Positions 12,279-44,523 of a DNA stretch of 64,000 nt are shown piece by piece. Source of the stretch: a virus; the IMG/VR virus record IMGVR_UViG_3300048014_000353, positions 64,001-128,000 of that record; one strand, given 5' to 3'. Under the pieces are notes generated by a model, which was not told the DNA's origin, searched no databases, and saw nothing but the letters and a program-made list of their open reading frames with translations. A program made the translations under genes and the position numbers. Position 1 is the stretch's first letter. The number at the start of each line of letters is the position of its first letter.

Positions 12279-14843
12279 GTGCCCGCCGTGACGACGAAAC
12301 CCATCCTGCTCGACCTCGCGCCGAGCGACGTGCACACGCCGTCGTCCATGGCGACGGTGAGCGCCGCCAAGCCGGGTCTCCTGGCCAAAGCCGCGCTCGC
12401 CGTCGTCCACGACGACGGCGGTCGCATCCTCACCGTCGCCCGCCCCGAGCCGCCTCACGAGATGGCCCTTCCGGGCGGGATGATCGAGGACGGCGAGACC
12501 GAGGAAACCGCCGCCGCCCGCGAGCTGACCGAGGAAACCGGCATCAAGGCCGATGTCCTCGAGCACATCCTCGACACCCGGAGCCCCGTCGACGGCCGCG
12601 TCGTCTCGATCTTCCGCGTCACGCGGTGGTCGGGCGAGCCGTCCGCCGCCGAGGGCAACCCGGTCCAGTGGATGAAGCCGATCGACCTTGTGGCCCAGGC
12701 CACCCACTTCCGCCCGACCTTGAGGGAACTCATGCCGCACATCCTCCCCGAGGGCGAGATGGCCGAGCGCGCGAACCTCATCGACGCCGCCAAGCGCAAC
12801 GCCCTGGCCGAGTCGAAGTTCGCGCTCCCCGCCCAGCGCAAGTACCCGATCGACACGGCCGCCCGCACGCGCAACGCCGCCGCGCGTCTTGAGCAGCAAA
12901 GGAAGGCCGGCAAGATCTCCGACGCCGACTACAAGACCGCGCGCGTTCGTATCGCCGCCGCCGCGAAGTCGTTCGGCATCGACAGCGAATTCAACGCGCG
13001 CGCCGGCTCGCCGCCGGCCGCCGCCGCCAAGCGACCCGCAGGACGCGGGCGCGGAACCATTCACGTCCGGGCCGACCTGGCTCCCGGGGGAGCTCTCCAC
13101 GTGCGCCATATGACGACGAGCGAGGACGGCGCGCAGGCCTTCGTCCAACTGAGTGACGGAAGCATCGGCCTCCGCGACATCCGCGCGATCAAGCAGGGCG
13201 ACGAGGTCGATCCGGCCACCGCGGGCGTGAAGCTCATCGGCAAAGCCACCTGGAGCGACGGGACGCCCAAGACCCTCGTGTGGATTCAGGTGGCCGAGTG
13301 CGGCGCCTGGCGCGGTCACCCGGCCGGTCCGTTCGAGATGACGCCCAAGACGTTCGCCGAGATCAAGGCCAACTTCGACCAGCGCGGTCTCCCGGTCCCC
13401 TTCGACTACGAGCACGCGAGCGAGCAGGACGCGACGAGTGGCAGCATCCCGATCTCGGGCGCGCCCGCGCCGGGCTGGGTCCACAAGCTCGACAACCGCG
13501 GCATCGGCGGGCTCTGGGGCCTGGTCGAGTGGCTCGACGCCGCGCGCAACGCGATCAAGGAAGGGTCCTACGCCTTCCTGTCGCCTGCCATCCGCTTCGG
13601 GTGCAAGCACCCGGTGACGGGGCAGCCCATCGGCGCGCGGCTCACGTCGGTGGCGCTCACCAACCAGCCGTTCCTGACGTCGCTCGACGACCTTCGCGCG
13701 GCGAAGGACGACTCGGCGCGCGAAGCGCTGCTCGCGAAGTCGCCGCTCCTGTTGAAGGGCTTCGGTGAGAACGTCATCGCCGCCGGCGGCAGCGCGCTCC
13801 TCGACCGTATGGTCCATTCCCCGTCGGGGATCCTCCCCAAGATCAAGGCGGCGCTGAAGCTGCACCCGCTCGCGACGCTGGACGACGTGTCGGGGCATCT
13901 CGGCAAGCTCCGCGAGGCCTGCATGTCGGCCGACGCGGGCGGGTCGTACTGCGGCGAGCCGCTCAGCGACTACTTGGGGCCGCTCACCGACCTCGCGAAC
14001 CCCGGCCTTGGGGCGACCTACACCAACGTCCTCGACGCGCTCGACGCGTTCGTGGACGCCGAGATCGAAAAGCACGTCTTCCAAGGCGTGCCCATGCCGG
14101 ACCCGCCTTCTGCGGCGATGGACGACGACTTTGATGACGGCGGAGGAGACCTCTCCGACCGCCCGGAGAAAACCATGTCCGACAAGACCGCCACGACCCT
14201 CAAGGACGCTCAGGACGAACTCGCCAAGGTCACCGCCGTCAAGGAGTCGGTCGAGGCCGAGCGTACGCAGCTCCTCGCCGACAAGCAGACCCTCGCGACG
14301 GAGAAGACCAACCTCCTGGCGGACAAGGTCAAGCTCGAAGGCGAGAACTCGACGCTCACCCTGCAGCTCCGCGACGCGACGCAGAAGGCGACCGAGGCGG
14401 GCGAAGCCCTTTCGACTGCGAACGCGTCGATCGCCGCCGCTTCCACTGCGCTCGTCCTGAAGGACAAGGAGACGCTCGCCGAGGGTGCCGCGCGCATCGT
14501 CGCCGACAACGTGCGCCTGGCGAAGGAAGTCGCCGACATCAAGGAGGCGGGGCTCGTCGCTGCCGTAGACGACGCCTTCGCGGCGTACAGCGAGAGCAAG
14601 AAGCTCCGCGCCGAGGACAAGCCCATGATGCTCCGCTCGGCCCGCGCCGACCGCGAAGCGTTCGATGCGCTCTACCCGCCGGTCAGCGCCGCGCACCGTC
14701 ACCTCCTCACGACCGTCGTGACCCCCGAGAAGCGCCCGGAAGTGGAGCAGGCGGAGGCAAGTGACCCGATCAAGGTCATGAGCGAAACCGGCTGCAATTA
14801 CGCCGAGGCGCTCGCGCGTATCAACCGCAAGAAGCCCGAATGA
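12279..14843 (+). CDS. Nudix hydrolase / DUF6582-like / Mu I-type prohead protease / scaffold fusion
   Basis: Nudix box GGMIEDGETEETAAARELTEETGI; FALPAQRKYPID segment; WIQV...PVPFDYEHA...APAPGW...WLDAARNAIKEGSYAFLSP...VALTNQPFL; C-terminal coiled coil. Confidence 0.85.
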   Translation: MPAVTTKPILLDLAPSDVHTPSSMATVSAAKPGLLAKAALAVVHDDGGRILTVARPEPPHEMALPGGMIEDGETEETAAARELTEETGIKADVLEHILDTRSPVDGRVVSIFRVTRWSGEPSAAEGNPVQWMKPIDLVAQATHFRPTLRELMPHILPEGEMAERANLIDAAKRNALAESKFALPAQRKYPIDTAARTRNAAARLEQQRKAGKISDADYKTARVRIAAAAKSFGIDSEFNARAGSPPAAAAKRPAGRGRGTIHVRADLAPGGALHVRHMTTSEDGAQAFVQLSDGSIGLRDIRAIKQGDEVDPATAGVKLIGKATWSDGTPKTLVWIQVAECGAWRGHPAGPFEMTPKTFAEIKANFDQRGLPVPFDYEHASEQDATSGSIPISGAPAPGWVHKLDNRGIGGLWGLVEWLDAARNAIKEGSYAFLSPAIRFGCKHPVTGQPIGARLTSVALTNQPFLTSLDDLRAAKDDSAREALLAKSPLLLKGFGENVIAAGGSALLDRMVHSPSGILPKIKAALKLHPLATLDDVSGHLGKLREACMSADAGGSYCGEPLSDYLGPLTDLANPGLGATYTNVLDALDAFVDAEIEKHVFQGVPMPDPPSAAMDDDFDDGGGDLSDRPEKTMSDKTATTLKDAQDELAKVTAVKESVEAERTQLLADKQTLATEKTNLLADKVKLEGENSTLTLQLRDATQKATEAGEALSTANASIAAASTALVLKDKETLAEGAARIVADNVRLAKEVADIKEAGLVAAVDDAFAAYSESKKLRAEDKPMMLRSARADREAFDALYPPVSAAHRHLLTTVVTPEKRPEVEQAEASDPIKVMSETGCNYAEALARINRKKPE

Positions 14844-15901
14844 TCCTCGTCCGCGACATCCAAGGGAACCCCCTCTTCTATCTGGAGGGGGATGTCGCGC
14901 GCGACAGTAGCGGCAAGCCCGTGGCCGTCGCGGTCGACAAGGACGGTGAGTCCAGACGGCTCACGAAGCACGCCGCGCGCGTGATGACCGCCACGTCGCC
15001 GGAGAGCGTCCTCATGGACCTAGCCCCGGGCGACGTGGTGACGCCGTCAACGCAGGACGTCTACGCTATGCCCTTCGGGGACTTCGTCGCCGACCAGGTT
15101 AGCCAGGTTCGCTACGTCAAGAACGATCGCGGCGTCTACTACGCCGAGAACGTCGCCGATGCGACGAGCCTCGTCATGGCAGTGGCGGCTGCCGACGGGA
15201 CGCCGAGCGAGATCAACCCGGGCTTTGGCTCCGGATCGTTCAAGACGACAGGCTACGCGCTTGCGACGCGGCTCTCGCGTTCGCTCGTCAACAACGCCGA
15301 CTTCGACCTCAAGGCGATCGCGCTCCACCGGCTGATCATCGCGCTCCGGCTCGGGCGCGAATACCGGCTCGCGCAGCTCCTCACGACCGCCGCGAACTGG
15401 GCGACCAAGAACCAGATCACTGCGACCGCGAAGTGGAATGGCGGCATCACCGCGAACCCGCTCGCGGACCTTTTCGCCGCGCTCGCCGCTTCCGCGCTCC
15501 CCGCCAGCATGGTGGTGATGCCGGAGCTCGCCGCGCAATACTTTTTCCAGAACGCCAACTCCACCGCCATGCGCGACTACGTGCAGTCGGGCGGTGAGAT
15601 GCCCAAGGTCGTCTTCGCCCGCGCGAAGTTCACGAGCGCGGGCAACGCAGCGTACATCTGGGCGCCGACGCTCCCCGCGAACGTCGCGATGGTGCGCTCC
15701 ACCGACCACTTGCCGACGACGACCACCTACCGGTGGCTCGGCGACGACAAGTGCAAGGACGGCGAGCGCGCCGAAGGGATGCTCGTGCGGCAATTCTGGA
15801 GCAACACCGATGATTCGTACTGGATCATCGCAGCTCACAACGATGCCGAGCTGATGATCGCACCCACGGTGGGAGCCATCATCACCGGCGCGATGGCGTA
15901 A
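14840..15901 (+). CDS. Major capsid protein paralogue 1 (phage capsid E-like)
   Basis: EINPG, YAL, NAD, RLGREYRLAQLLTTAANW, KWNGGITANPL; homologous to 16543..17841. Confidence 0.75.
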   Translation: MILVRDIQGNPLFYLEGDVARDSSGKPVAVAVDKDGESRRLTKHAARVMTATSPESVLMDLAPGDVVTPSTQDVYAMPFGDFVADQVSQVRYVKNDRGVYYAENVADATSLVMAVAAADGTPSEINPGFGSGSFKTTGYALATRLSRSLVNNADFDLKAIALHRLIIALRLGREYRLAQLLTTAANWATKNQITATAKWNGGITANPLADLFAALAASALPASMVVMPELAAQYFFQNANSTAMRDYVQSGGEMPKVVFARAKFTSAGNAAYIWAPTLPANVAMVRSTDHLPTTTTYRWLGDDKCKDGERAEGMLVRQFWSNTDDSYWIIAAHNDAELMIAPTVGAIITGAMA

Positions 15902-16066: not shown

Positions 16067-16492
16067 ATGTCCGCGACCGATTTCATTTGGGGTGGGCTGC
16101 CGATCTTCGGCGCCGACTGGACCGTCAAGAACACGAGCGGCACGGCCATGACCTCGGGTCAGACCGTCAAGCTCGACGCCTCCAACCCGCTCTCGGCGGC
16201 GCAGGCCGCGCCCGGCGTCGTCCTCACGGCCGCCGTGACGGACTACCCGCTCGGGGTCCTCATCGAAAACATCCCCGTCGCGTCGTACGGCCGCTGCCGC
16301 GTCGAGGGGGGAGCCGTGGCCATCGCCGCCGGCGCGATCTCGGCCGGCGCCATCGTCGGCCCGTCGGGCGCGACCTCGGGTGACGTCACGACCTACACGG
16401 CCGGCGACCCGTCGCTCGGCCAGGCCCTGTCGGCCGCGCTCAACGCCGCCGACCCCATCGCCGTCCGCATCGCGATCTCCAAGAACGCCTGA
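16067..16492 (+). CDS. Capsid decoration/cement protein (DUF2190-like)
   Basis: AAGGAG RBS; Gly/Ala-rich small protein between capsid genes, YPLGV...GAISAGAIV...GQAL..A. Confidence 0.7.
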   Translation: MSATDFIWGGLPIFGADWTVKNTSGTAMTSGQTVKLDASNPLSAAQAAPGVVLTAAVTDYPLGVLIENIPVASYGRCRVEGGAVAIAAGAISAGAIVGPSGATSGDVTTYTAGDPSLGQALSAALNAADPIAVRIAISKNA

Positions 16493-16542: not shown

Positions 16543-17841
16543 ATGTCGACGCAAAAGCTCGTCTCGCTCAAGGACGTCAAGTCCAACAAGATCCAGTATC
16601 TCGACCTCGCGAGCGGCGCGCTCTACGCCGATCCGGAGGGTCGCCGCACGATCCGTCAGCTCACGCCCACCGAGGTCGTCCTCGGCGACCGCGGGGAGCC
16701 GGTCCGTCACCCGAACGGGGATCTGATCCACTGCTCGGAGCTCGCGAACATCGCGGTCGAGCACTACGCGCGCGGCATGGCGATCTCGATGGGTCGTTCC
16801 GTGCCTTTCGAAGTCACGCGGATGGACGGCTCCACGTCCAAGATGATGTCGTTGCGTGACGGACGCGTCGTCACCATGGACCTCGGTATCTCCGACGTAC
16901 ACACGGCCGCGACCCTGCCGAACTACGTCGGCGGGTACCACATCGCTGACGGGGTCGCGGACATCGCGTCGCCCAGCATCCTCGTGCCGAAGGCCACGGA
17001 CGTCTACTACACGTGGAACGCGACGTCGGACTTCAACCGGAAGATCCCGAACATCACGTCCCCCGGCGGGGCCGTGCCCGAAGTGAACCCCGGCATCGCG
17101 AACGCGACCTACAACACGGTCAACTACGCGCTCGGCGGGTTCCTGCCGACCGAAGTGCAGTCCAACGCGGACGCGCCCCTTCGCCCCTTCGCGAAGATGA
17201 CGCAGATCATCGTGGACGGCATCCGGCTCGAGCGCGAGTACCGCGTGGCGTCGCTGCTCACGACGAGCGGCAACTGGAACAGCAACCTGGTCCAGACCAT
17301 CGCGGCAGGCGCGCAGTGGGACGGCGGCGCGGCAGCCGACCCGCTCTACGTGCTGCACAAGGCGATCGAGCAGTCGTACATGGAGGACAACCTCCGGATC
17401 ATCTGCTCGACGCAGCTGCTCCACGACTTCCTGCGGTCGCCGGCGATCCAGAAGTACTTCCAGTTCAAGGACAGCGTCGCAGGCGTTCCGTCGGCGCAGG
17501 CCGTCGCCGACACCCTGGGCCTCCCGCCCATCTACGCGGCGCAGATGAAGTACATCACGGGCGGCGCGCTCAACTACGTGTGGGGTTCGTCGGTCCTCCT
17601 CGTGCGCGTCCCCAAGGAGACGCCCCCCACGAGCCAGATGGAAGTCGGCACGTCGTACACCATGCGGTGGAACGGCGGCGACGCCCCGGACGGCACGGTC
17701 TCGGGCGGGCTCCTCGTCCGCACGTACTACGACCAGAAGCGCGGTGGGCGCGGCGGCACTCAGGTCGTCGTCACGCACAACGACAGCGAGCAGATGACCT
17801 CCGGCCTCGTTGGCGGACTCCTGCTCAACGTTCACCAGTGA
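16543..17841 (+). CDS. Major capsid protein paralogue 2 (probably the main capsid protein)
   Basis: YVGGY...VADIASP, EVNPG, RLEREYRVASLLTTSGNW, QWDGGAAADPL; very high GC3 and followed by strong hairpins. Confidence 0.85.
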   Translation: MSTQKLVSLKDVKSNKIQYLDLASGALYADPEGRRTIRQLTPTEVVLGDRGEPVRHPNGDLIHCSELANIAVEHYARGMAISMGRSVPFEVTRMDGSTSKMMSLRDGRVVTMDLGISDVHTAATLPNYVGGYHIADGVADIASPSILVPKATDVYYTWNATSDFNRKIPNITSPGGAVPEVNPGIANATYNTVNYALGGFLPTEVQSNADAPLRPFAKMTQIIVDGIRLEREYRVASLLTTSGNWNSNLVQTIAAGAQWDGGAAADPLYVLHKAIEQSYMEDNLRIICSTQLLHDFLRSPAIQKYFQFKDSVAGVPSAQAVADTLGLPPIYAAQMKYITGGALNYVWGSSVLLVRVPKETPPTSQMEVGTSYTMRWNGGDAPDGTVSGGLLVRTYYDQKRGGRGGTQVVVTHNDSEQMTSGLVGGLLLNVHQ

Positions 17842-17962: not shown

Positions 17963-18400
17963 ATGCCTCCCAAGAGCCTCGCTGGTTGGTACAAGCTGAA
18001 GAATTGGCTCTTCCGCGGTGGCGTTCATCACGCACCCGGAGATGTCGTGGAACTCTGCCACGAAGATGCCGAGACGGTGCTGAAGCACGGTACGGCGGAG
18101 TCTCACGCGCCCGTCCCGCCCGCGTCCGCCAAGGCCGTGGAGCCCGCGCCCGAGGCCCCCGCAGCCTCCGACCCGCCGGCGCCTTCGGCCGTGACGAGCG
18201 TGTCGATCACCCCCTCCGCACCCGACGCGCAGTCCGGCAAGCGCGGCGGCCCGCAGGGCCGTCCGTCGCAGGCACCGAAGGCCGACCGGTCTGTGTCCGC
18301 CAAGGACGAGAAGCCGGCGGCGAAGGACGACGACAAGTCGCCCGAGGCCGACAAGGCCGCGTCATCGGCGCAGGGCACGCTCAGCGCTACCTCCAAGTAA
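17963..18400 (+). CDS. Head-associated hypothetical protein (short N-terminal domain plus Ala/Pro/Lys tail)
   Basis: YKLKNWLFRGG...PGDVVELCHEDAETVLKHG, resembles small post-capsid proteins. Confidence 0.65.
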   Translation: MPPKSLAGWYKLKNWLFRGGVHHAPGDVVELCHEDAETVLKHGTAESHAPVPPASAKAVEPAPEAPAASDPPAPSAVTSVSITPSAPDAQSGKRGGPQGRPSQAPKADRSVSAKDEKPAAKDDDKSPEADKAASSAQGTLSATSK

Positions 18401-18527
18401 TTCGCCGCTCCGTACCGGAGCAGCAGCTCGGACCGTGATCGGGAACGTCGTCCTGGTCCGGGCTTCGTGTGTGCCGTGACGTTTCCGCCCTCGTCTAGGG
18501 GCGCCTGCTCCCGTGAGACCCGACCCC

Positions 18528-18974
18528 ATGAATTCCACTGCGTCCGAGTCGCCGAAGAAGCCGAAGAAGGCGAAGAAGTCCCTCGCTACGCCCGCCGCCG
18601 CCGCGCCCCCCCCCGCGAAGGCCCCCCCCGGCGTGCGCGTGCTCAAAGAGGGCAACGGCGTGATGAGCGACGAAGACCGTCTGCTCCGCACCAAGAAGCC
18701 GACCGCTGCGGAGCGCAAGCTCGGCGGCCAGTATCGGCTGATTCACGGCAGCATCGTACTTCCGGTCCCGGAGTCCGAGCGACTTCTGCCGGACGGTACG
18801 CTCAACCCGAACGTCCAGACCGTGCGCTACGTGCAGGCCGGCGCCGAGATCGAGCTCGACGACGAGGAGGCGGCGCGTCTCGAGGACGCGGGGCTGATCG
18901 AGCCCCTGAGCGTGAGCCCCCGCCACAGCCGCCTCGGCAAGGTGTGGAGCCCGCCGGTCAACCAGCGGATGTGA
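18528..18974 (+). CDS. Head-associated hypothetical protein
   Basis: AGAEIELDDEEAARLEDAGLIE, similar to the GDVVEL...AE.LL..G module of 17963..18400. Confidence 0.6.
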   Translation: MNSTASESPKKPKKAKKSLATPAAAAPPPAKAPPGVRVLKEGNGVMSDEDRLLRTKKPTAAERKLGGQYRLIHGSIVLPVPESERLLPDGTLNPNVQTVRYVQAGAEIELDDEEAARLEDAGLIEPLSVSPRHSRLGKVWSPPVNQRM

Positions 18975-20516: not shown

Positions 20517-21629
20517 ATGATGCTCGGCGACAGCACGTTCCTGACGCCGGGGCACGTGGAGGGGGCGGAGGCGTCGGCGCTCCACGCGCCCCCGCCGCCC
20601 CCCGTCCTCACGTCGCTGGATCTCGGCGCGGACGTCGTCCCCTTCGAGGGGGTGGCCGAGATCTGGGGGTCGGTCTCGATCCCCACCCAGCCCGCGATCG
20701 CCGGGCAGGTGAGCGGCGACGGTCTCCTCAGCATCTACCTCTCGTACCTGAAGGCGTTCCTCCAGACGGACGGCAACGCGACGGGGGGATGGAGCGCGAT
20801 CGCGCCCGGTCGCCCCATCGTCAACCGGGTGCGTCCTCACAACCCAAACGACTCCGACGCCGAGCCCGACGGCCTGGGATTCGACACCAAGGACCTCCCG
20901 GCGCTCTACCTGTGGCGCGGCGGGCAGCACGAGAGCACCAAGGTCGAGTACATCGCGGAGGACTGGCAGATCGGCACCGCGATGCTGAAGCTCCTCTGGG
21001 TCTTCCCCCTGGGAGTCATCTCGCACCAGCGCGTGCGGCAGTCGTTCGGCGACGCCGTCGCCAAGGCCATCATCACGGCGATCGAGCTCGGTCGGACGCC
21101 GAGTTGGCAGTGGCCCGGGGACCCCGATCCGCTGGCGCCGGCGTTCGGGTCGTTCGTGCACACGTTCACCAACGTGTTCTCGCTGAACGTCACCGAGTGG
21201 AAGCCGGAGTCGGTGGACATCATCATGACCGCCGACGACAAGAGCTCTCGGCGACTTCGCTACCCGGCGATCGAGGTGACTCTCGAGCTCGTCGAGAACC
21301 GCCAGCGCGACGTGCGGCGCTGGAGCGCCCCGTCCGCGCTTCAGCAGACGTTGACCGGCGGTCGCCCTTCGCTTCCCGCGTGGGCTCCGGGCCAGGTCTA
21401 CGCGTCGAACGACTTCATCCAGGCGACGCCCGTCGGGTCGAGCACGCCGTTCGCCTACAAGGCGTACTCGCTCTCGGGAATGGGCGTCACCGGCAACCAG
21501 TCCCCCGCGTGGCCGACGGTCGTGGGGGCGACGGTCGCCGACGGCGCGAGCCTGACCTGGACGTGCAAGGGCGCGGTGCCGCCGTCGGTCATCAGCCGAG
21601 TGGGCGAGGGGGGCGTGGCCATCCAATGA
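20517..21629 (+). CDS. Putative tail terminator-like protein with a C-terminal CBM-like module
   Basis: DLPALYLW, position before the sheath; module WAPGQVY...WPTVVGATVADG..LTWTCKG. Confidence 0.6.
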   Translation: MMLGDSTFLTPGHVEGAEASALHAPPPPPVLTSLDLGADVVPFEGVAEIWGSVSIPTQPAIAGQVSGDGLLSIYLSYLKAFLQTDGNATGGWSAIAPGRPIVNRVRPHNPNDSDAEPDGLGFDTKDLPALYLWRGGQHESTKVEYIAEDWQIGTAMLKLLWVFPLGVISHQRVRQSFGDAVAKAIITAIELGRTPSWQWPGDPDPLAPAFGSFVHTFTNVFSLNVTEWKPESVDIIMTADDKSSRRLRYPAIEVTLELVENRQRDVRRWSAPSALQQTLTGGRPSLPAWAPGQVYASNDFIQATPVGSSTPFAYKAYSLSGMGVTGNQSPAWPTVVGATVADGASLTWTCKGAVPPSVISRVGEGGVAIQ

Positions 21630-34217: not shown

Positions 34218-34769
34218 ATGGGTGCAGGTATCTTCCCGGCCGGCGTCGGCCGCGCGGGGTCCAATCCCGTGCAGGCGCCATCGCCGCAGTACACCGCGCC
34301 CTTCTACGGCGGCCTCGTCGCCGCGGTCCCGGGAACGTACCCGCTCGTGCTCGAGTACGTGCCCAGCCCCCAAGGGGGACCCGGCTTCGTGCAGAACACC
34401 AACGGCACGCTGAGTGGTGTCCATCCCGTCGACCAGCAGGTCGCGCTCGCGCTCTTCATCGAGCTCGGCAGCATCCCGAGCGCGCCGGAGATCGGCTCGA
34501 AGCTGCGCACGGTCTTGTCGCGCACCGATCCGCAGCAGGCCTACCAGACCGCGCTCGATGAAGTGAACCGGGCGCTCGCGCTTCTCTACGCCCAGAAGGC
34601 CATCACGCTCCTGTCCTTCGCGCTCGACCAGAGCACGCCGGGACGCTCCATCCTCGCCATCGGGTACACCAACTTGCTCGACCCTCGCTACAACCCCAAC
34701 AACCCGGCGCTGAGCAACACGGGAAGCGTGGGCGTGGCGGGGAACCGTACGCTGACGGGGAGCGCCTAA
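34218..34769 (+). CDS. Baseplate wedge (gp46/W-like)
   Basis: QQVALAL...GSI...IGS.L; directly before baseplate J. Confidence 0.7.
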   Translation: MGAGIFPAGVGRAGSNPVQAPSPQYTAPFYGGLVAAVPGTYPLVLEYVPSPQGGPGFVQNTNGTLSGVHPVDQQVALALFIELGSIPSAPEIGSKLRTVLSRTDPQQAYQTALDEVNRALALLYAQKAITLLSFALDQSTPGRSILAIGYTNLLDPRYNPNNPALSNTGSVGVAGNRTLTGSA

Positions 34770-36268
34770 TGCCGCTCGACACCCTTCCCGGATCGCTCAC
34801 CGTCCCCGGCCGAAACCAAGAGCGCGATCGCTACCGCTCCAACTACCTGCTCCGGAACCCGGGCGTCCCGACCGGGGAGGGGACCCAGGTGTGGATCGAC
34901 GCGAGCGTGACGGCCGACCAGACGGCGGTCATCTACGCGAACGCGGTCCTCATCGCCAACAGCGTCACGCGCGCGACCTCCATTGGGCCGCAGCTCGACG
35001 CGTGGGCGGCCGCCGCCGGCACGATTCGCCAGCCCGCGGTCGGCGCGAGCGGCTCGGTCATCATCACGGCGGGGGCGACCGGCACGCAGATCCTGGCCGG
35101 CGACGAGCTCACGGTCAACGGCACCCGCTACGAGTGCGCCGCCACGGGCACGTACCTCGACGGCGCGAACGTTCCGGTCACCGGAATCGACACAGGCTAC
35201 GGGACCAACCAGCCCCCGGGCACGGTCCTCACGTGGACCGCGCCCCGACCGGGGTGCGCCACGACCGCGACTGTCTACGAGCAGGAGGACGGCGACGGGC
35301 TCACGGGCGGCGCGCCCGCCGAGACCGACTTCCAGCTCCGGACGCGGCTCGACAACCTCGCGGCCAACCCGCCGGCGAGCGGCAACGACGCGCAGTACCA
35401 GCTCCTCATCGGCACGACGCCGAACGTGGCTGTGCAGCAGCCGTTCACCTACCCGTGCATCAAGGGAGCGGGGAGCAAGGGGATCACGGCCACCCTGCGC
35501 CCGGCGCAGAGCGGCGCATCGCGCATCCCGAACAGCACGCAGCTGAACGCCATCGCGTCGTGGTGCAAGGGGCAGATGCCCGCCGACGACGGGATCTTTC
35601 TCATCACGCTGGTCGCCAACCCGGTCAACGTGAACATGGAGCTCGCCTGGACACCGGGCGCCGGCTCGTGGGCGGACGCCGCGCCCTGGCCTCCGTACGT
35701 GTCGGGCGCGCAGATCGCGGTCGATGCCTCGCAGCCCGCGACCGCGACCAGCTTCTCGCTCACGGGGAACAACGGTACGAACGTCGCCCCCGTCGTCGGG
35801 CAGTCCATCGCCATGCTCGACCTGCCAAACCTCGTATTTAGGCAGAAGAAGATCCTGACGGTGACGGCGTCCGGCACCGACTGGGTCATCACGGTCGATA
35901 CGACCAACGGGGTCTCCGACACGAGCTACACCCCGTTCGGTGGCCAGATCGTAGGCCCGTGGAGCACGGCGCTCAACAGCGTCGTGCAGACCGCCGTGGG
36001 CTACTTCGACGGCCTCGGACCCGGCGAGATGGTCAACTCCTTCGTCGACCCGGGCCTGCGCCAGCGCCGCAGCCCGTCGTCCCCCGGCACCTGGCCGAAT
36101 CAGATCACCAACCGCGTGCTGTCGGCGCTCTTTGACCTCGACGCGATCGAGGACGTCGCGCTCCTCGACCCCGCGATTCCGTTCGTGGCGCCGTCGGGTA
36201 ACCCGGGCGTGAGCGCCTATATGAACACGCTCAACAACCTCGCGTTCTTCGCCGAGGCGCTCACGTGA
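34769..36268 (+). CDS. Baseplate J protein (Mu gp47-like)
   Basis: GPQLDAWA...RQPAVGASG, GIDTG..TN, GGAPAETD..LR.RL, PASGN..QY. Confidence 0.9.
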   Translation: MPLDTLPGSLTVPGRNQERDRYRSNYLLRNPGVPTGEGTQVWIDASVTADQTAVIYANAVLIANSVTRATSIGPQLDAWAAAAGTIRQPAVGASGSVIITAGATGTQILAGDELTVNGTRYECAATGTYLDGANVPVTGIDTGYGTNQPPGTVLTWTAPRPGCATTATVYEQEDGDGLTGGAPAETDFQLRTRLDNLAANPPASGNDAQYQLLIGTTPNVAVQQPFTYPCIKGAGSKGITATLRPAQSGASRIPNSTQLNAIASWCKGQMPADDGIFLITLVANPVNVNMELAWTPGAGSWADAAPWPPYVSGAQIAVDASQPATATSFSLTGNNGTNVAPVVGQSIAMLDLPNLVFRQKKILTVTASGTDWVITVDTTNGVSDTSYTPFGGQIVGPWSTALNSVVQTAVGYFDGLGPGEMVNSFVDPGLRQRRSPSSPGTWPNQITNRVLSALFDLDAIEDVALLDPAIPFVAPSGNPGVSAYMNTLNNLAFFAEALT

Positions 36269-36966
36269 GCTTCGCGCAGCTGAGTCCCGGCCTGTCCCCT
36301 TGGGACTTGCCGACGGCGCGCCGCCCGATCCTCGCCGACTTCAACAACTGCCCCGTCCAGAACGACGCGCTCAACCCGCCCATCCCGGGCGCGATGATGA
36401 CCGCACCGCAGTGGCAGATGACCGACGCCCTGATGGTGGCGCTGGCGCGCGTCACCCCCAGCGCACGCATCAGCGTGGCCGCAGGCACGACTCCGAAGAT
36501 CGTTGGGTGCCAGACGGCCGGCAACACCCTGTCGTCGGCCAACTTCGTCGTCACGCGGAACGCGGCGGGCGACTACTCGATCACCTGGGCCCAGCCCTCG
36601 AGCGCGACCACCTGGTCGCCCGCGTCGACGTACGCGACCGGCGCGTTCGTGCTGCCCCCCCAAGCGACGGGATTTTACTACAAGGCGACGACCGGCGGCA
36701 CAAGCGCGATCACGCAACCCATCTGGCCGATGGCCGTGGGCGCAACGGTCACCGACGGCACCACCACCTGGACGTGCTGGGGCATCGTGAGCTCGCTCCC
36801 CACACCGGCGTCCCAGCCGAGCGCGCGGCTCAACGCGCCCGCCGGGCTCACGAACCTGAACACGGCCGCGTCGGTGAGCGCCATCAACATCCCAAACGGC
36901 GTGCGCGTGACGACCGCGCTGCAGACGCTGCTCGCGGACGTCAACTTCACCGTCGATCTCTGGTGA
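36265..36966 (+). CDS. Baseplate/fibre-associated protein A with CBM-like module
   Basis: Paralogue of 36974..37708 with near-identical DNA blocks. Confidence 0.75.
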   Translation: MSFAQLSPGLSPWDLPTARRPILADFNNCPVQNDALNPPIPGAMMTAPQWQMTDALMVALARVTPSARISVAAGTTPKIVGCQTAGNTLSSANFVVTRNAAGDYSITWAQPSSATTWSPASTYATGAFVLPPQATGFYYKATTGGTSAITQPIWPMAVGATVTDGTTTWTCWGIVSSLPTPASQPSARLNAPAGLTNLNTAASVSAINIPNGVRVTTALQTLLADVNFTVDLW

Positions 36967-36973: not shown

Positions 36974-37708
36974 ATGACCACGGCTGTCATCGAATCCAGC
37001 CCCGGCATCAGCACGTGGGACGTCCTGCCGACGCCCTACCGCCCCGGGGTCGCGGACTTCAACGGCGCGGCCCTCACCGACGACCCCGACGCGCCGCCGA
37101 ACCCGAACGAGTTCCCGACCGCCAACCAGATGAACACCGAGGCGCTGGTGCTCGTCTCGATCGGCAAGATGGTGCCGAACGCGCGCCTCAGCATTCTCGC
37201 CGGCGCGACGCCGTCGATCCTCTACTGCACCGCGGCCGGCAGCAACGTGACCGCGTCGAGCTTCGTCGTCACGCGGAACGCCGCGGGCGACTACTCGATC
37301 ACCTGGGCCCAGCCCTCGGGCACGCTCACGTGGTCCGCCCTCACGGCGTACGCGGTCGGCACGTTCGTGCAGCCGACGAGCGCCGCGACGACGGGCTTCT
37401 ACTACAAGGCGACGGCGATCTCCGGCACCGGCACATCGGGCACGACGCAGCCCACGTGGCCGACGACGATCGGCGGCACGATCGTGGACAACGCGGGTGC
37501 CAATCAGATCACATGGACGTGCATCGGCCCCATCACGCCGATGCCCGCGCCCGTCGCGCAGCCCGACGCGTACATCAACCTCGCCTCGGGGCTCGATGGC
37601 GTGCACGCGTTCTCGATCAGCGCCATCAACATCCCAAACGGCGTGCGCGTGACGACCGCGCAGGGAAGCGCGCTCACTGACATCAACTTCACCGTGAGCA
37701 TGTACTAA
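36974..37708 (+). CDS. Baseplate/fibre-associated protein B with CBM-like module
   Basis: FVVTRNAAGDYSITWAQPS and SAINIPNGVRVTTA shared with 36265..36966. Confidence 0.75.
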   Translation: MTTAVIESSPGISTWDVLPTPYRPGVADFNGAALTDDPDAPPNPNEFPTANQMNTEALVLVSIGKMVPNARLSILAGATPSILYCTAAGSNVTASSFVVTRNAAGDYSITWAQPSGTLTWSALTAYAVGTFVQPTSAATTGFYYKATAISGTGTSGTTQPTWPTTIGGTIVDNAGANQITWTCIGPITPMPAPVAQPDAYINLASGLDGVHAFSISAINIPNGVRVTTAQGSALTDINFTVSMY

Positions 37709-37711: not shown

Positions 37712-39187
37712 GTGCCGCACTTCCTCTCGGCGTTTACCCCGATGGGGATGCTCCGCTTGTCCAGCAAGCTGAGCCCCGTCGAGCTCTGGTACAACGCGAT
37801 CAACGATGCCTACGGCCCCGGCTACAGCCCGGTGGCAGGGTCGCATCAGGACGCGAGCAACTACGCCCGCGCGCGCGCCTTCGCCCGCGCCGACGCCGCC
37901 GCGCAGCGCGCGGGCAACAACCGCAACGGCGCGACCGCCCTCGAGCTGATCCCGCTCCTCGAAGCGGACTACGAGATCTCGCCCGCCGCGACCGCGACCA
38001 TCACCCAGCGCCAAGCGGCCATCGCCGCCGCCCAGGCGCTGCCGGGGGGGGCGAGCTTCTCGAACGTCGCCGCCGTACTCGCGTCAGTGCTGGGTACCGA
38101 CTTCGTGGCGTACCGGCCGCTGGCGACCACGGAGGCGTCAACGTACCCCGTCTGGCCGGGCGCTACAGCGACGCTGAAGAGCAACCCGACCCTAGGGATG
38201 CAGCCCGTCAAGATGTGCGTCTTGACCGAGCCCGTGGGCCAAACCATCCCCGTCAACGGAGAGCCCACCCTCGTCGGGTACACCGATCTGCAGCCAGCGC
38301 CCAAGGGCATCGACGCGAGTGGCAGCCTGCTCGCCCTCTCCGCCTGGGCGTCGACGACGTCCTACACCACGGGCCAGATCCTCGGTCCGCAGAGCCCCAA
38401 CGGCTTCGCCTACGTCTGCACGACCGCAGGCACCAGCGGGACGCTCGAGCCATCGTTCCCGCGCTTCGCGCGTGCCAACGTAACCGATGGTTCGGTCGTC
38501 TGGACGTGCATCGGCACGACCCAGAGCGTCGGCGGGTCGCTGCTCGCCTACCCGTCTCCGTGGAGCGCTAGCATCCCGGCCCTGGCGGCGATCGTGGTCC
38601 AGCCCGACGCGCAGCCCAACGGCCTCGCCTACCAGTGCACGACCGCGGGCGTCACCGGCGCGACCGAGCCGACGTGGCCCACGGTCGTGGGACAAACCGT
38701 CGTCGATGGGACTGCGGTGTGGGAGTGCGTCTCGGTGCTGGCTCCCACGCCCGGCGAAACGGACCTTGCCGCCGGCGACGTCGTCGTCGTGCAGGGCGAG
38801 AACACGTGCCTATCGGAGGTCGTGACCGTGATCGCTACGGTGGGCACCGGTTCGCAGCGGTACTTCTATGCGCCGTTCCAGTACGCGCACGACGCGGGCG
38901 CCACCGTCACGACGATGGACTGGCCCTATGCGTGGTCCACGCAGCGCTTCGCCTTCGTCGTCGTCTCGGCCGCCGCCGCCGTCGATCCGGTGCGCCGGAA
39001 TCTCGTACACACGTGGATGCGCAAGCTCGCCCGCGGTGTCTCGCAGTGGGCCATCGTCCCCGCGGGCGTCCCCATCGGCGGGGCGGGGGAGTCGCTCATT
39101 ACGCCGTTCGCCTTCGGCACGTCCCCGCTGGGCACGGCGCCCCTCGGCAACACGTTCGAGTACTGGCCGACGCAAGCCGGGCGGTGA
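37712..39187 (+). CDS. Baseplate wedge/gp48-like protein with two CBM-like modules
   Basis: ALELIPLLEADY...TITQRQ.A.AA; two NG.AY.CTTAG repeats. Confidence 0.65.
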   Translation: MPHFLSAFTPMGMLRLSSKLSPVELWYNAINDAYGPGYSPVAGSHQDASNYARARAFARADAAAQRAGNNRNGATALELIPLLEADYEISPAATATITQRQAAIAAAQALPGGASFSNVAAVLASVLGTDFVAYRPLATTEASTYPVWPGATATLKSNPTLGMQPVKMCVLTEPVGQTIPVNGEPTLVGYTDLQPAPKGIDASGSLLALSAWASTTSYTTGQILGPQSPNGFAYVCTTAGTSGTLEPSFPRFARANVTDGSVVWTCIGTTQSVGGSLLAYPSPWSASIPALAAIVVQPDAQPNGLAYQCTTAGVTGATEPTWPTVVGQTVVDGTAVWECVSVLAPTPGETDLAAGDVVVVQGENTCLSEVVTVIATVGTGSQRYFYAPFQYAHDAGATVTTMDWPYAWSTQRFAFVVVSAAAAVDPVRRNLVHTWMRKLARGVSQWAIVPAGVPIGGAGESLITPFAFGTSPLGTAPLGNTFEYWPTQAGR

Positions 39188-39192
39188 ATCGA

Positions 39193-40420: not shown

Positions 40421-40501
40421 GCTTCCCACCATCCGCTGCACCCCGCGACCATGCAAGGTGAACGTTCGTGCGGTGGTCGCATGTCGTAAGGACGTGCGCC
40501 C

Positions 40502-42505
40502 GTGATCGTCATCACGGGTCACTTCCTGCCGACCTTGCCCGAGTGGTCGGCGTCCACGGTCTTTGGTCAGCCGAACGTCCAGCCGAGCCCCCCCAACGGC
40601 TATTACTACCAGTTTCTCAGCACGGGAACGTCCGGTGCCACGCAGCCCGTCTGGCCGACGACCACGGGCGCGTCGGTGAACGACGGCACTATGGTCTGGT
40701 ACTGCCAGGGCTACCTCGCCGCGCAGTTCCAGCTGCAGACGTGGGACCAGAAGCAGGCGCAATCCGTCAACGGAGACCTCGGCGGATGCTGGGCCCCGTC
40801 CACGACGCTCACGATCAGCTCCGCTTCGGGTGGATTTCTTGACGTGACCGGGCCGACGGTCCTGTCGGGCTATGGCCAGCTCGAGACGCAGAGCAGCGCG
40901 CTCGTCTACCTGGACACCGGCGACTTCCCCCAGCTCGCATCGAACCACGCGGGGCAGTACCGCCGCATCCGTACCGACTGCGCGCTCGCGGTGTCCAACC
41001 ACCCGCTCAGTCTGCGGCAGGACTTCGCGCTCTCGGGGCTGCGCGCGACGGCGTGCACGCTGCAGACCTATACGACCGGCCCCGTACTCGGTATCGGCGC
41101 CTGGGCGCCGGCGCTCGTGGTGAGCGTGAACAACATCACGCTGTCGGGCGAGCAGTTCATCGACGGGGTGAGCACGTCGAGCTCGCGCGTGCTCGTGGTC
41201 GGCCAGTCCACCGCGAGCCAGAACGGAATCTACACGAGTGGCTCCGGGGCGTGGACACGCACGAGCGACGCGAACACCGGCGCACTCTTCACCTCCGACA
41301 AGTCGATCAACATTCTGTCCGGGGCGGCGTACGCCGGCTCCACCTGGGCGTATTCGAGCGCCACGACGCCGACCCTCGGCACGTCGGCCGTGTACTTTGC
41401 GCTGGCCAACGACCAGTCGGTCATCGTCACGACGACGCCCGTGCAATGGCAGATGTCCTTGCGGGTGCATGACGGCGCCACGCTCGTAGACGCCGTGCTG
41501 TCTTATCTTGCGACCCTCGGCACACCCAAAGCGCGTGTCGTGGCCGTGAGCGCGCTCGGCGCCGTCACGCCCCTCACGAGCACCTCCGCGGGGGCGGACG
41601 TCAACGGATGGGTGACCGCGCCGACCGCGAGCTCCTCGACCATGATGCAAGCGTGGTCGATTCCCATCGACGGCGGCGCCGCGGGCAACGCCGTCGTGTC
41701 GGTCGCCTCCGACACCTATCTCCTGCAGGTGATAGAGGACCAGACCCAGACCGCGTACCCGGGAGTGATGCCCGTCTACACGAGCGTCTACGCCGCGACG
41801 ACGACCGCGATCGATATGGCCAACGCGCCCGCCACCATCGACGGGGTCACGCTCACGGTGGGACAACGCGTTCTCATCAAGAACCAGACCGACCCGACGC
41901 AAAACGGGGTCTATCTTTACCCCGGCGCGGGCAACTCCTTCGCCTACAAGGGTGAGGCGCCGATCCCCGTCTGGACGCCCAACACCGCCTACGCGGTGGG
42001 CACGAACGTCCAGCCCGGATTCTACAGCTCCGGCGGCCACGTCCTCAGCAAGTCCAACGGGCTCTACTACCAGTGCACCGCCACGTCGGGCACCGGCACC
42101 AGCGCCTCGGCGCCACCGATTTGGCTTACCACCGCGGGGGCCGTCGTCATCGACAACCCCGGAGCCAATCAAGTCACTTGGACCTGCGAGGGCGCACTTC
42201 CTTCGGGCCTGTACACGCAGACGATCGAGATTCGGACCTACGGCCTGCTCCAGGGGGCCGTCGTACCGGTGGTCAACGGCGCGACCAACGGCGGCACGCT
42301 CTGGCAGTACGGAGGGACGAGCATTACGCCGAGCAGCGTGGGAGCGTTGCCCGCGTCGCCGTGGGGCACGATCCCGACCGGACTTGTCAGTGGAACGACC
42401 TCTGACGTTTCGCAGGTGGGCTCTGGCATCTTCTCAGCACCCGGCAATCTCTACAACGACGTCGCCGTCGACCACGTCGATATCGCCGACCAGAGGTTCC
42501 AGTAA
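40502..42505 (+). CDS. Tail fibre-like protein with two CBM-like modules and two TIDGV...RVL repeats
   Basis: NITLSGEQFIDGV...RVLVVGQ...QNGIY; Thr/Gly-rich. Confidence 0.75.
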   Translation: MIVITGHFLPTLPEWSASTVFGQPNVQPSPPNGYYYQFLSTGTSGATQPVWPTTTGASVNDGTMVWYCQGYLAAQFQLQTWDQKQAQSVNGDLGGCWAPSTTLTISSASGGFLDVTGPTVLSGYGQLETQSSALVYLDTGDFPQLASNHAGQYRRIRTDCALAVSNHPLSLRQDFALSGLRATACTLQTYTTGPVLGIGAWAPALVVSVNNITLSGEQFIDGVSTSSSRVLVVGQSTASQNGIYTSGSGAWTRTSDANTGALFTSDKSINILSGAAYAGSTWAYSSATTPTLGTSAVYFALANDQSVIVTTTPVQWQMSLRVHDGATLVDAVLSYLATLGTPKARVVAVSALGAVTPLTSTSAGADVNGWVTAPTASSSTMMQAWSIPIDGGAAGNAVVSVASDTYLLQVIEDQTQTAYPGVMPVYTSVYAATTTAIDMANAPATIDGVTLTVGQRVLIKNQTDPTQNGVYLYPGAGNSFAYKGEAPIPVWTPNTAYAVGTNVQPGFYSSGGHVLSKSNGLYYQCTATSGTGTSASAPPIWLTTAGAVVIDNPGANQVTWTCEGALPSGLYTQTIEIRTYGLLQGAVVPVVNGATNGGTLWQYGGTSITPSSVGALPASPWGTIPTGLVSGTTSDVSQVGSGIFSAPGNLYNDVAVDHVDIADQRFQ

Positions 42506-43311
42506 TGGCTCACGGTACACGCATCCGCACCGATGCGGCCTGGGCGGTTGGCTCGCCCTGGCTCGACAGCGAGCGCATCGCGATGGACGCGGCCCTCACG
42601 AGCGCGCTCAACGGCGACGGGGGCGGGACCTACACGCCCACGGCCAACCTCGTCATCGCGGGGGCGGGGCTTCGGCTGCTGGCGACCACGCACACCCTCT
42701 CGGGGTCGGGCGCGTACCTGGCCACCTCCATCTCTGGCAACAAGCACCTCGTCCACGGGGACAGCGACTATTGCGTGCTCGGGTCGGGGCACTCCGGCAC
42801 GAGTCGCGTCGTCGAAAGTCCCATCACCCGCGCGCGGTACGCTAACGGCTGGACGACCGGCTCCAGCATGATCGTGTCCACCGAGTACGGGGCGACTGCG
42901 CGCATCCCGCTGAACGTCCACGACGGCGCGCAGTTCAGCAGCGTGGCCTTCAACTTTCTGGTCGCAACGAACACCGGGGAGTGCCCCGACGAGACGCCCG
43001 CGCGCTTCGGCGTCTTTGCCAAGGACCAGAACGGCGTCACCTATCCGCTGAGCGCGTCGATGCCCTACCAGGGGCAGCCGAACTACACGAGCGTGGCCGC
43101 TTGGTACAACAGCGGCCTGCCGCAGCAGTTCGTCTACGTCTGCGACGCGTACGCAAGCAACCCGTACGTCCTCGTGGACACGTCCCGGTTTACGTACTTC
43201 GCCGAGATCGTCGAGGCCTCAAGCGTCGTGCAGGCCGACTTCCTGGGAGCGACATGGTTCCAGGACATCCAGTCCGGGTTCGAGAACATCCCCAACCTCG
43301 CGCCGCAATAA
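42505..43311 (+). CDS. Tail fibre-associated protein, paralogue family with 40502 and 43315
   Basis: ALNGDGGGTYTP and PLNVHDGA motifs. Confidence 0.7.
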   Translation: MAHGTRIRTDAAWAVGSPWLDSERIAMDAALTSALNGDGGGTYTPTANLVIAGAGLRLLATTHTLSGSGAYLATSISGNKHLVHGDSDYCVLGSGHSGTSRVVESPITRARYANGWTTGSSMIVSTEYGATARIPLNVHDGAQFSSVAFNFLVATNTGECPDETPARFGVFAKDQNGVTYPLSASMPYQGQPNYTSVAAWYNSGLPQQFVYVCDAYASNPYVLVDTSRFTYFAEIVEASSVVQADFLGATWFQDIQSGFENIPNLAPQ

Positions 43312-43314
43312 GCT

Positions 43315-44523
43315 ATGCCGCACAACGACTTCGTTCGACCCGACGGCCAGTGGCCGCTCGAGACGGTTCCCACTCCGGGTGACGCGCGCGCGCTCGACGT
43401 GGCCCAATACCAAGCCGTCAACGGCGACGCGGGCGGCACCTGGTCCCCCGCGACAGCCATCTCTCTAGGAGGGCGCGGACTCGCCCTCACCGGCGGCCTG
43501 CACCAGATCGCCGGCGGCGTGCGCACGCAGGAAAGGGGCCGCGTGGTCCTCGGGCACAGCGACTTTCCGACATTCAAGACCGCCGCGTCGCGCGTGCTCA
43601 CCGTTCCGCTGCTCGACTACGGGCTCTATTCCTTTCCCGACCAGGTCCCCGCACCCTCGATGGTGCAGCTCGCCCGGTCGCTTTCGCCGCCGGGCACCAT
43701 CTTCTCGTCGTCCTCGCTGCAGTCGGCGGTCTTTCCGATCGATAAGCGTTACATGCACAACGGCGCCACGCTGGCCTCGGCGCTCATCGCGATTGCGATC
43801 GGTCAGTCGCATGCGGTCGTGCCCGCGACACAGCCACAGGCGCTCGTTCTCCGCGACGACTTCATCGTGGGGTCGGCATGCTTTCCGTTCGTAGCGGGCG
43901 CGAACTACAGCCTCCAAGAGTACGTCGTTCCGCCCACGCCGAACGGGTACTTCTACTCGGTCACCACGGGGGGTACGGCGGGCGCCGCGCCCGGCTCGTG
44001 GCCGACGACGTACGGGACGACCATCAACTCCGGGCCGGTGATGTTCACGTGCGATGGGCCCACGTGGTCCGGCGCCTACGCGAGCTTTGCCGATCCGCAC
44101 GGGTGGGCGCCCACCGCGAGCGCCCAGGCCGGGCGACTCATCCAGCCGAGCCCCGCCACCGGGCAGTTCTTCGTCTGCACCGAGACCGGCACGACCGGAA
44201 CGACGCAGCCCACCTGGCCCACCGCGTACCTGTCAGAGGTGAGCGACAATACGACGACCTGGCAAAACCTTGGGTCGATGCTTCCGATTCTGAGCGGGCA
44301 GATGGGGGCCGGAAGCGCCGCCGCTTACTTCAATGGCGGCGTCGCGCAGTCGTTCAGTCTCGCAGCCGTGACCGGGGGCCCGTCGCTCATCGACACGACC
44401 AAGTTCTCCTACGCGCTGCTCGTGGTCGACGAAAACGGCACGAACGCGTTTCTACCGAGCCTCAACATCCTCATCGCGGCCCAGCTCACCTACACGGGAA
44501 TCGCAGACATGCGATTCGAGTGA
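43315..44523 (+). CDS. Tail fibre-associated protein with two CBM-like modules
   Basis: AVNGDAGGTWSP, MHNGATL, two NG/TG.F..TTGGT modules. Confidence 0.7.
   Translation: MPHNDFVRPDGQWPLETVPTPGDARALDVAQYQAVNGDAGGTWSPATAISLGGRGLALTGGLHQIAGGVRTQERGRVVLGHSDFPTFKTAASRVLTVPLLDYGLYSFPDQVPAPSMVQLARSLSPPGTIFSSSSLQSAVFPIDKRYMHNGATLASALIAIAIGQSHAVVPATQPQALVLRDDFIVGSACFPFVAGANYSLQEYVVPPTPNGYFYSVTTGGTAGAAPGSWPTTYGTTINSGPVMFTCDGPTWSGAYASFADPHGWAPTASAQAGRLIQPSPATGQFFVCTETGTTGTTQPTWPTAYLSEVSDNTTTWQNLGSMLPILSGQMGAGSAAAYFNGGVAQSFSLAAVTGGPSLIDTTKFSYALLVVDENGTNAFLPSLNILIAAQLTYTGIADMRFE

Follow-up and report, generated by a model that had tools for sequence, protein, structure and literature searches.

Does a phage with paired genes for its capsid, tail tube, chaperone-like proteins, and baseplate, and with a trio of related fiber genes, build two kinds of particle, or is the pairing a stack of unrelated events? 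The question is raised by a stretch of 64,000 nucleotides (the window; bases 64001-128000 of the 138.5-kb IMG/VR record IMGVR_UViG_3300048014_000353) from an uncultured soil phage, estimated to be 82% complete. The plus strand of the window holds a long morphogenesis module that runs from the terminase through head, neck, tail, and baseplate to the fiber genes. A preliminary description had taken the paralogues in this module for a systematic doubling of structural genes and had suggested heteromeric or alternative particles, for example one sheath and baseplate serving two types of head or of tube. On the basis of the age and spread of each set among approximately 90 related loci, we conclude that at least five separate evolutionary events are layered in one module and that the phage most likely makes one kind of virion, a reading to which we give a probability of about 70%.

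The window has a G+C content of ∼68%, and the gene order of its module is large terminase, portal, protease/scaffold, capsid paralogue, cement, major capsid, neck proteins, sheath, tube, two chaperone-like genes, tape measure, hub genes, baseplate J, two small baseplate genes, gp48-like wedge, and fibers. A tblastn search of a phage collection returned no cultured close relative; only three Brevibacillus phage records (two phages) were matched, at 22% identity, the best match being a Brevibacillus phage capsid. The major capsid protein as a single query against viral contigs found no relative, and an alignment query was needed. Homologues were collected for the major capsid protein (135) and for baseplate J (322). 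The relatives comprised 62 loci obtained with the capsid alignment and 27 obtained with the baseplate J alignment, with flanks of up to 10 kb per side; they are metagenomic fragments, cited here by L numbers for loci and G numbers for genomes, and they were searched with every protein of the window. G001, the sequence of which is locus L098, is a 95% complete relative.

An all-against-all BLASTP comparison of the plus-strand genes of the window bore out the more evident pairs. The capsid pair (14840/16543) aligned with 28% identity over 383 residues (E 2e-34), with both members matching phrog_1005, "major head protein"; the tube pair (24725/25983) with 56% identity over 123 residues (E 5e-52); and the baseplate pair (36265/36974) with 49% identity over 239 residues (E 1e-71). 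For this last pair, which had been likened to fibers, homology holds; among the baseplate and fiber genes as a group, much of the similarity is due to a mobile 60-residue module that is also present in the single-copy sheath. BLASTP showed no similarity within 26436/27169 or within 17963/18513, the two pairs that had been called weaker. Profile comparison with hhalign, on alignments built from the relatives, established the chaperone-like pair 26436/27169 as homologous (98.3%, E 2e-14, 160 columns), and this match persisted after the removal of two alignment rows in which the open reading frame (ORF) caller had fused both genes. The small head genes 17963 and 18513 were also matched (95.8%, E 7e-9), within the limits of a 48-column DUF7210-like motif; the second of these genes, earlier placed at 18528, is real but occupies the ORF 18513-18974. 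The fiber trio (40502/42505/43315) gave 98.9-99.5% (E 1e-19 to 1e-22), and seven unrelated profile pairs, compared as a control, gave hhalign probabilities of ≤0.5%. As described earlier, the terminase, portal, sheath, tape measure, and baseplate J proteins have no full-length paralogue in the window by BLASTP, the cross-matches of the sheath to other genes being limited to the shared 60-residue module. The full 138.5-kb record contains exactly two capsid genes and two tube genes. The single-copy genes and the small head pair are as follows.

Large terminase, plus-strand module (phrog_38).
Mu-type portal, plus-strand module (PF06074).
22858-24558, plus strand: tail sheath, single copy (phrog_165, E 1.5e-47), with one carbohydrate-binding module (CBM) 5/12-like module at residues 200-275.
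28513-30852, plus strand: tape measure, single copy, assigned by position and length; relatives at 25-50% identity, no paralogue by BLASTP.
34769-36268, plus strand: baseplate J (Mu gp47 / T4 gp6-like), single copy (PF04865, E 7.8e-22).
17963-18400, plus strand: small head-proximal protein, the first ∼50 residues conserved, with the DUF7210-like motif shared with 18513; found by tblastn only in L003 and L004.
18513-18974, plus strand: head-tail connector-like small protein with the DUF7210 motif (phrog_2322, E 1e-4; PF23843, E 9e-4, below the Pfam cut-off).

The sets differ widely in how far they extend among the relatives. The chaperone-like pair is present in 26 relatives and the fiber trio in three, the second capsid gene (copy 2) belongs to a nine-genome clade, the second tube gene (tube B) was found here only, and the baseplate pair is lineage-specific. 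The sets also dissociate within single genomes: in G001, copy 2, the fiber trio, and the chaperone-like pair are all present, yet the tube and small baseplate genes are each single, which argues against a coordinated two-particle design. The idea that the duplications form one adaptive design for alternative particles, with two head and/or tube types on a common sheath and baseplate, draws on the fact that head, tube, chaperones, baseplate periphery, and fibers are consecutive assemblies with intact paralogues and coding-type codon bias, and on the strong ribosome-binding site that tube B has of its own. Against this stand the failure of the pairs to co-occur in relatives, where subsets of them are already seen; the presence of the chaperone-like pair in 26 phages, none of which yielded more than one tube gene; and the tie of the tube pair to a selfish endonuclease gene. 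Moreover, matching partners for a second particle type are missing, with only one copy each of the sheath, portal, tape measure, and neck genes. Since the sets differ in age and spread, the two-particle reading is unsupported, and we consider it highly improbable. The scheme of one systematic doubling, and with it the genome-wide design of alternative particles, is therefore left without support; a heteromeric head, in which the major capsid protein shares one shell with a specialized paralogue, survives as the best reading of the capsid pair. The preliminary description had named single-copy relatives with sporadic, decaying duplicates as the pattern that would speak against it. The tube and baseplate genes are indeed single in relatives, but no duplicate in this genome is decaying, and the capsid, chaperone-like, and fiber sets are stably kept.

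The two capsid genes flank a cement gene and follow directly on a protease/scaffold gene.

12279-14843, plus strand: protease/scaffold polyprotein with NUDIX, DUF6582, and Mu gpI-type protease parts (PF10123, E 6.5e-22; PF00293, E 8.5e-19; PF20223, E 5.5e-11).
14840-15901, plus strand: capsid paralogue copy 2, 353 residues, candidate vertex/penton protein (phrog_1005, E 9e-13).
16067-16492, plus strand: cement/decoration protein between the two capsid genes (PF09956, E 9e-6), kept upstream of the major capsid gene in relatives.
16543-17841, plus strand: major capsid protein, 432 residues (phrog_1005, E 1.2e-29).

The AlphaFold2 (AF2) model of copy 2 shows a complete HK97 fold (predicted local distance difference test (pLDDT) score 81), and its top PDB match is 3bjq (E 1.8e-15), a prophage-related protein of Bordetella that we take to be a Mu gpT-type capsid protein. 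Compared with the major capsid protein, copy 2 has a shorter N-terminal region, lacks the LPNYAAGY motif and the RGxRGG loop that are conserved there, and carries 5-10 added residues after the YVW motif. Its orthologues (40-51% identity) were found in L003-L008, L010, and L013, in each case between the protease/scaffold and cement genes. All other loci (L009 and more than 40 further ones, L012 among them) lack the gene, and there the protease/scaffold and cement genes adjoin directly. In L009 and L012 the major capsid protein resembles that of the window as closely as do those of the clade members. In the tree, all nine copy 2 proteins group together on a long stem (support 100); the nine corresponding major capsid proteins likewise group together (support 99), and the sister of this second clade is L009, without copy 2. 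The matching clades point to one origin followed by co-inheritance; an approximately unbiased (AU) test did not separate duplication within the clade from import of copy 2 (p 0.29 and 0.45). The reading frame is intact in six distinct lineages at 40-54% identity. Ratios of nonsynonymous to synonymous substitution rates (dN/dS) by the Nei-Gojobori method (NG86), a crude estimate to be read as a relative measure, were 0.43-0.55 for copy 2 versus 0.47-0.68 for the major capsid protein in the same pairs, so that by this estimate the two genes look similarly constrained. Copy 2 would have arisen or been acquired once, in the ancestor of the nine-genome clade, by insertion between the protease/scaffold and cement genes, and would then have co-diverged with the major capsid protein.

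The ATG of copy 2 overlaps the stop codon of the protease/scaffold gene (ATGA) without a clear ribosome-binding site, the major capsid gene being preceded by GAGGA; judging from these signals, copy 2 is probably made in smaller amounts than the major capsid protein. By analogy with two studied phages, we see an even chance that copy 2 is a vertex (penton) protein of independent origin, which would form the pentameric vertices of a shell with hexamers of the 16543 product. In phage T4, gp23 forms the hexamers and gp24 the vertex pentamers, and gp24, for which bypass is possible, is seen as a late addition in evolution (PMC3012670). In Jabs, a siphophage of Mycobacterium abscessus, a preprint describes a T=9 capsid with one hexon and one penton protein (bioRxiv 10.64898/2026.07.24.740622, PMC13419713). 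The likeness to T4 lies in a shorter HK97-fold paralogue of the major capsid protein (∼28% identity here) that sits in the head module and is kept across a lineage, and in its dispensability: gp24 can be bypassed, and the relatives without copy 2 use the same major capsid family alone, which marks copy 2 as an add-on. The differences are that copy 2 has an independent origin, within a Mu-like head module (Mu-type portal, gpI-type protease) and with 3bjq as the best solved match, and that it lies upstream of the major capsid gene with the cement gene in between; its pentamer role is a predicted one. Jabs is likewise a tailed phage outside the T4 group in which capsid paralogues are split into hexon and penton, but it is a siphophage of an actinobacterium. 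Neither Pfam nor PHROGs assigned copy 2 to the T4 gp23/gp24 family, phrog_1005 being the sole match; copy 2 may work like gp24, yet it is not a member of that family.

It is rather unlikely that copy 2 is instead a mosaic-shell component within the hexamer lattice, or that it acts outside the shell as an assembly factor or as a decoy for capsid-sensing host defenses. A complete HK97 fold with several conserved major capsid loops altered would suit such a role, and two-component HK97-type shells do exist (PDB 9bje and 9bix, among the matches; Family 2B encapsulins, PMC11071501). Yet the phage capsid paralogues that have been resolved experimentally, those of T4 and Jabs, are both hexon/penton splits; the overlapping start and weak ribosome-binding site of copy 2 suggest a low output; and for the capsids of relatives lacking copy 2, this one major capsid family suffices. 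If copy 2 does form vertices, then penton proteins, so far shown for T4 and Jabs (the latter in a 2026 preprint), evolved repeatedly in HK97-fold phages, and the clade together with its copy 2-less sister phages would offer a natural comparison for the purpose of a special vertex protein.

Two further observations concern this region in the relatives. In L010 and L013 the match to the NUDIX part of the polyprotein lies apart from the protease, upstream of it, so the fusion appears variable. In L003 (6784-9399) and L004 (6984-9320) the copy 2 frame runs on far upstream to reach the protease/scaffold region (open for 871 and 778 codons between stops), which may be an in-frame fusion or a chance open frame in GC-rich DNA.

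The duplication of the tube genes is supported, with one correction to the earlier account: an antisense gene for an HNH endonuclease sits between the copies.

24725-25099, plus strand: putative tube protein A, 124 residues, the conservative copy, between the sheath and chaperone-like genes.
25096-25926, minus strand: free-standing HNH homing endonuclease gene, 276 residues, antisense (phrog_3377, E 1e-44; phrog_374, E 1e-30).
25983-26408, plus strand: putative tube protein B, 141 residues with a 17-residue C-terminal extension, the faster-evolving copy, with its own ribosome-binding site GGAAGGAG.

The identification of the tube family depends on gene order, size, and a structure match. The genes fall in the range of ∼120-170 residues and lie between the sheath gene and the chaperone/tape measure genes; the Atlas structure match of tube A has a template modeling (TM) score of 0.88 to a cluster in which only 14% of the members carry PF10618 (Tail_tube), and other matches have TM scores of 0.65-0.81 to further tube families. 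Pfam, PHROGs, and a PDB sequence search with the tube profile returned nothing. In all 24 loci that cover the site the tube gene is single, and its orthologue in the window is tube A, which has 56-60% identity to L016 and L035 versus 43-46% for tube B. In a tree the two copies are sisters (support 86/75), with a branch of 0.56 for tube B versus 0.19 for tube A. At the DNA level they are similar from the start codon to the end of the coding sequence and not beyond. The best outside representative of tube B is 47% identical, among 1.84 billion representatives clustered at 50% identity. Tube B is intact, with a G+C content at third codon positions (GC3) of 0.94, and since it also has a strong ribosome-binding site of its own, it is probably made. 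An artifact from the assembly of two strains was considered as the source of the tube pair and is unlikely, given 56% protein identity, similarity within the coding sequence only, and a unique gene in between.

The HNH gene has the marks of a mobile element. Its region has a G+C content of 0.58-0.60 versus ∼0.68 for the window, its stop codon overlaps that of tube A, and among the relatives it is sporadic at a fixed site. (Pfam at E 0.01 gave nothing for the HNH protein.) In the closest tail-module relative, G003 (L076:516-1367, plus strand), the same tube/chaperone junction is occupied by an HNH gene of 46% identity, in the opposite orientation and without a second tube gene, whereas in L035 the tube gene abuts the chaperone gene with no insert and other relatives also lack the HNH gene. 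The opposite orientation of the homologues in two phages suggests that the junction was invaded more than once.

Contractile systems with tube-fold paralogues include T4 (gp19 with gp48/gp54) and the extracellular contractile injection systems (Afp1/Afp5 and Pvc1/Pvc5), in which one tube-family protein makes the bulk tube and another a specialized ring, the paralogues being ancient and universal within each group. The window resembles these systems in having two tube-family proteins for one contractile tail, but it differs from them in that all 24 relatives have a single tube gene, from which it follows that tube B is not a conserved initiator-type component. We regard tube B as most likely a by-product of endonuclease-driven recombination, to judge from the sequence: it is confined to this genome, where it accompanies the antisense HNH gene at a junction that in a related phage holds a homologous endonuclease gene, and its product would be a minor or redundant subunit of the tube. 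Clusters of homing endonuclease genes are found at structural genes, and such genes mark the boundaries of genetic exchange (Barth, Dunham and Seed 2023, PMC10448857). As in the systems of that study, a low-G+C HNH gene lies here beside an essential virion gene, is present or absent at one junction, and marks the boundary of foreign sequence; unlike in those systems, the neighboring target-type gene is duplicated rather than replaced, and cleavage is a prediction from the sequence. No described case of the layout tube A, antisense HNH, tube B was found in the literature searched. The arrangement may be a case in which an essential structural gene was duplicated through the action of a selfish endonuclease, which would be one route to new virion components.

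The small baseplate genes lie between baseplate J and a gp48-like wedge gene.

36265-36966, plus strand: small peripheral baseplate protein, fast-evolving, 233 residues, CBM5/12-like insert at residues 108-190.
36974-37708, plus strand: small peripheral baseplate protein, conservative, 244 residues, with an N-terminal PRRP..DxGG anchor motif, a beta-sandwich core, and the insert at residues 110-195.
37712-39187, plus strand: Mu gp48-like baseplate wedge with two CBM5/12-like modules (phrog_203, E 2.7e-7; PF10076 weak, below the cut-off).

Approximately 18 relatives have orthologues of 150-190 residues between J and the gp48-like gene, with the motif PRRPSL.D.GGA..DD..PPDP and without the insert; the gene is single in ∼17 of them and doubled only in L085. 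The two copies of the window are sisters (support 93/91), with a branch of 0.75 for 36265 versus 0.26 for 36974, and both carry the CBM5/12-like insert at the same position. Because this shared insert is absent in the relatives, the insertion preceded the duplication. A word-based search of 5.8 billion proteins, with limited sensitivity, found for residues 1-112 of 36265 only 36974 besides itself. The AF2 model of 36974 (pLDDT 84) had no Foldseek match at E 0.001 or better; in a wider structural search its beta-sandwich core resembled the terminal knobs of tailspikes and pyocin fibers (Z 4.7-7.7). The models suggest that 36265 and 36974 are peripheral, lectin-like proteins of the adsorption apparatus, duplicated in this lineage, and the pair would be a lineage-specific tandem duplication of which one copy stayed conservative and the other evolved fast. 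Closer baseplate J homologues exist at 58-60% identity. L085 has a tandem pair of its own (11470-12549; 190 and 167 residues, without the insert), the sister status of which has support of 13/27; this pair suggests that the small baseplate gene may have duplicated more than once.

The tube and baseplate duplications, the two youngest, thus show the same asymmetry of one conservative and one fast-evolving copy, which fits relaxed selection and specialization alike, the two being inseparable by sequence. Tube B and 36265 could in principle be functionless passengers that have not yet decayed and are unused in the virion. Each is found in this genome alone and has a branch three times the length of that of its partner, crude dN/dS values are 0.89 for 36265 versus 36974 and 0.82 for tube B versus L035, and tube B is linked to a selfish element. 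Set against these points, the frames of both are intact after ∼45-50% amino-acid divergence, tube B has kept its GC3 of 0.94 and its strong ribosome-binding site, and nearly invariant family positions are kept in both copies of each pair. Neutral decay should bring stop codons or frameshifts, unless tube B came already diverged from another phage. We therefore find passengers unlikely, if worth keeping in view, and retain the reading of tube B as a minor or redundant subunit and of 36265 as a peripheral baseplate protein.

The chaperone-like pair lies between the tube genes and the tape measure gene.

26436-27107, plus strand: tail-assembly-chaperone-like protein 1, before the tape measure gene, with a T_TTT_TTC slippery site.
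27169-27813, plus strand: tail-assembly-chaperone-like protein 2, ancient paralogue of 26436.

Both genes were found in 26 non-redundant related loci, and the pair would be an ancient duplication common to the whole phage group. The possibility that each tube protein has its own chaperone is ruled out because the pair occurs in single-tube phages. The slippery site is in frame at 26891, and the −1 frame beyond it is open to 27172 (∼93 codons), with an ATGA overlap with 27169; 26436 probably also yields a −1 frameshift product of the G-T type. Neither protein matched Pfam or PHROGs, and the Atlas gave leads only, to tail-assembly-chaperone families (0.85-0.86, TM 0.38-0.62).

The fiber genes follow the baseplate genes, and two of their products carry the 60-residue module noted above for the sheath and baseplate proteins.

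40502-42505, plus strand: fiber protein 1, 667 residues, with two CBM-like modules, between which lie the shared anchor (residues 77-160) and the domain in common with 46368.
42505-43311, plus strand: fiber protein 2, 268 residues, with the N-terminal anchor of the trio but without CBM-like modules (hhalign 99.5%, E 1e-22, to the 43315 family and 99.2%, E 1e-19, to the 40502 family).
43315-44523, plus strand: fiber protein 3, 402 residues, with the shared N-terminal anchor and two CBM-like modules.
44530-45900, plus strand: fiber-region protein downstream, single copy, the N-terminal ∼170 residues conserved in most relatives.
46368-47693, plus strand: virion-associated protein with a ∼100-residue domain shared with fiber protein 1; PHROG matches to fiber, decoration, and virion structural proteins.
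20517-21629, plus strand: virion protein of unassigned role with a C-terminal CBM5/12-like module at residues 280-365.
60-residue module positions: 21354-21611, 23455-23682, 36586-36834, 37301-37558, 38309-38767, 40514-40741, 41945-42226, and 43876-44304.

The families of 42505 and 43315 align end to end by hhalign. The same three genes occur in the same order in L098/G001, L082, and L090, with best matches that agree with position throughout; two genes of the trio occur in L085 and one in most relatives. The three would be old paralogues with a common baseplate-docking N terminus and different distal parts, a division in which they resemble multi-fiber or branched receptor-binding sets. The module, with the pattern W..Y..G..V.P..NG.YY..T..GTSG..P.WP..G..V.DG..W.C.G, is present in 10 copies in seven virion proteins (one each in 20517, the sheath, 36265, and 36974; two each in 37712, 40502, and 43315), and none was found elsewhere in the 138.5-kb record. 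As modeled in 36974, it can be superposed with Z 8.2 on a Carin-1 fiber domain (8ck1) and on the C-terminal domain of the tailspike of cyanophage Pam1 (7eea); the fit to chitin-binding CBM5/12 domains is weaker (Z 3.5-4.1 at 26-30% identity). Pfam CBM_5_12 (PF02839) was detected at E 0.01 in two of the 10 copies, and the PDB and Pfam matches are borderline. On the strength of these models, the module is probably a sugar-binding decoration. Pam1 and Carin-1 likewise carry a module-like domain in virion proteins, but here it sits also in the sheath and in baseplate proteins. The baseplate pair, the fiber trio, and the ten modules together would represent ordinary diversification of the host-adsorption apparatus. 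Sheath-sized ORFs of G001, G003, and G004 also carry the module. The ∼100-residue domain shared by fiber 40502 and 46368 (41096-41398 and 46620-46919; 52% identity, E 2e-21 by BLASTP) has PHROGs relatives among head decoration, tail fiber, and virion structural proteins.

Several points weigh against separate events in a single type of virion. All of the roles given here to proteins in the particle are predicted ones, and that of copy 2 at the vertex draws on analogy, conservation, and weak translation signals, which a mosaic shell or another role would fit equally well. The dN/dS values are unreliable, as strong GC3 bias saturates synonymous sites. The link between 17963 and 18513 was built on shallow alignments of three and seven rows. 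Tube A and tube B are joined as sisters with no more than 86/75 support, and a closer relative of tube B could be masked by the clustering at 50% identity. Finally, the sequences of G003 and G004, the closest tail-module relatives, stop short of the baseplate, which leaves room for a baseplate duplication older than its distribution suggests. A bolder version of the heteromeric idea can also be formulated, with two-subunit versions of several assemblies: a penton of third origin after those of T4 and Jabs, a ring or segment of tube B gained through a homing event, and a hetero-oligomeric lectin of 36265 and 36974 at the baseplate edge. We hold this combination to be quite improbable. For genome scans more generally, the lesson is that consecutive gene pairs may go back to unrelated events rather than to one design, and that co-occurrence of the pairs in relatives separates the two cases.

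Two observations were made outside the paralogous sets. Upstream of the terminase, positions 5339-6691 encode a fusion of a phage DAM-like and a phage GNAT-like domain (PF22555, E 8e-49; PF22559, E 2e-40). The gap in the gene list at 31810-33100, between gene 30868-31809 and the conserved part of 32909-33946, corresponds to a similar interval of ∼1.2 kb in relatives and is probably filled by the C-terminal part of the frame 31116-33098, a hub-region gene.

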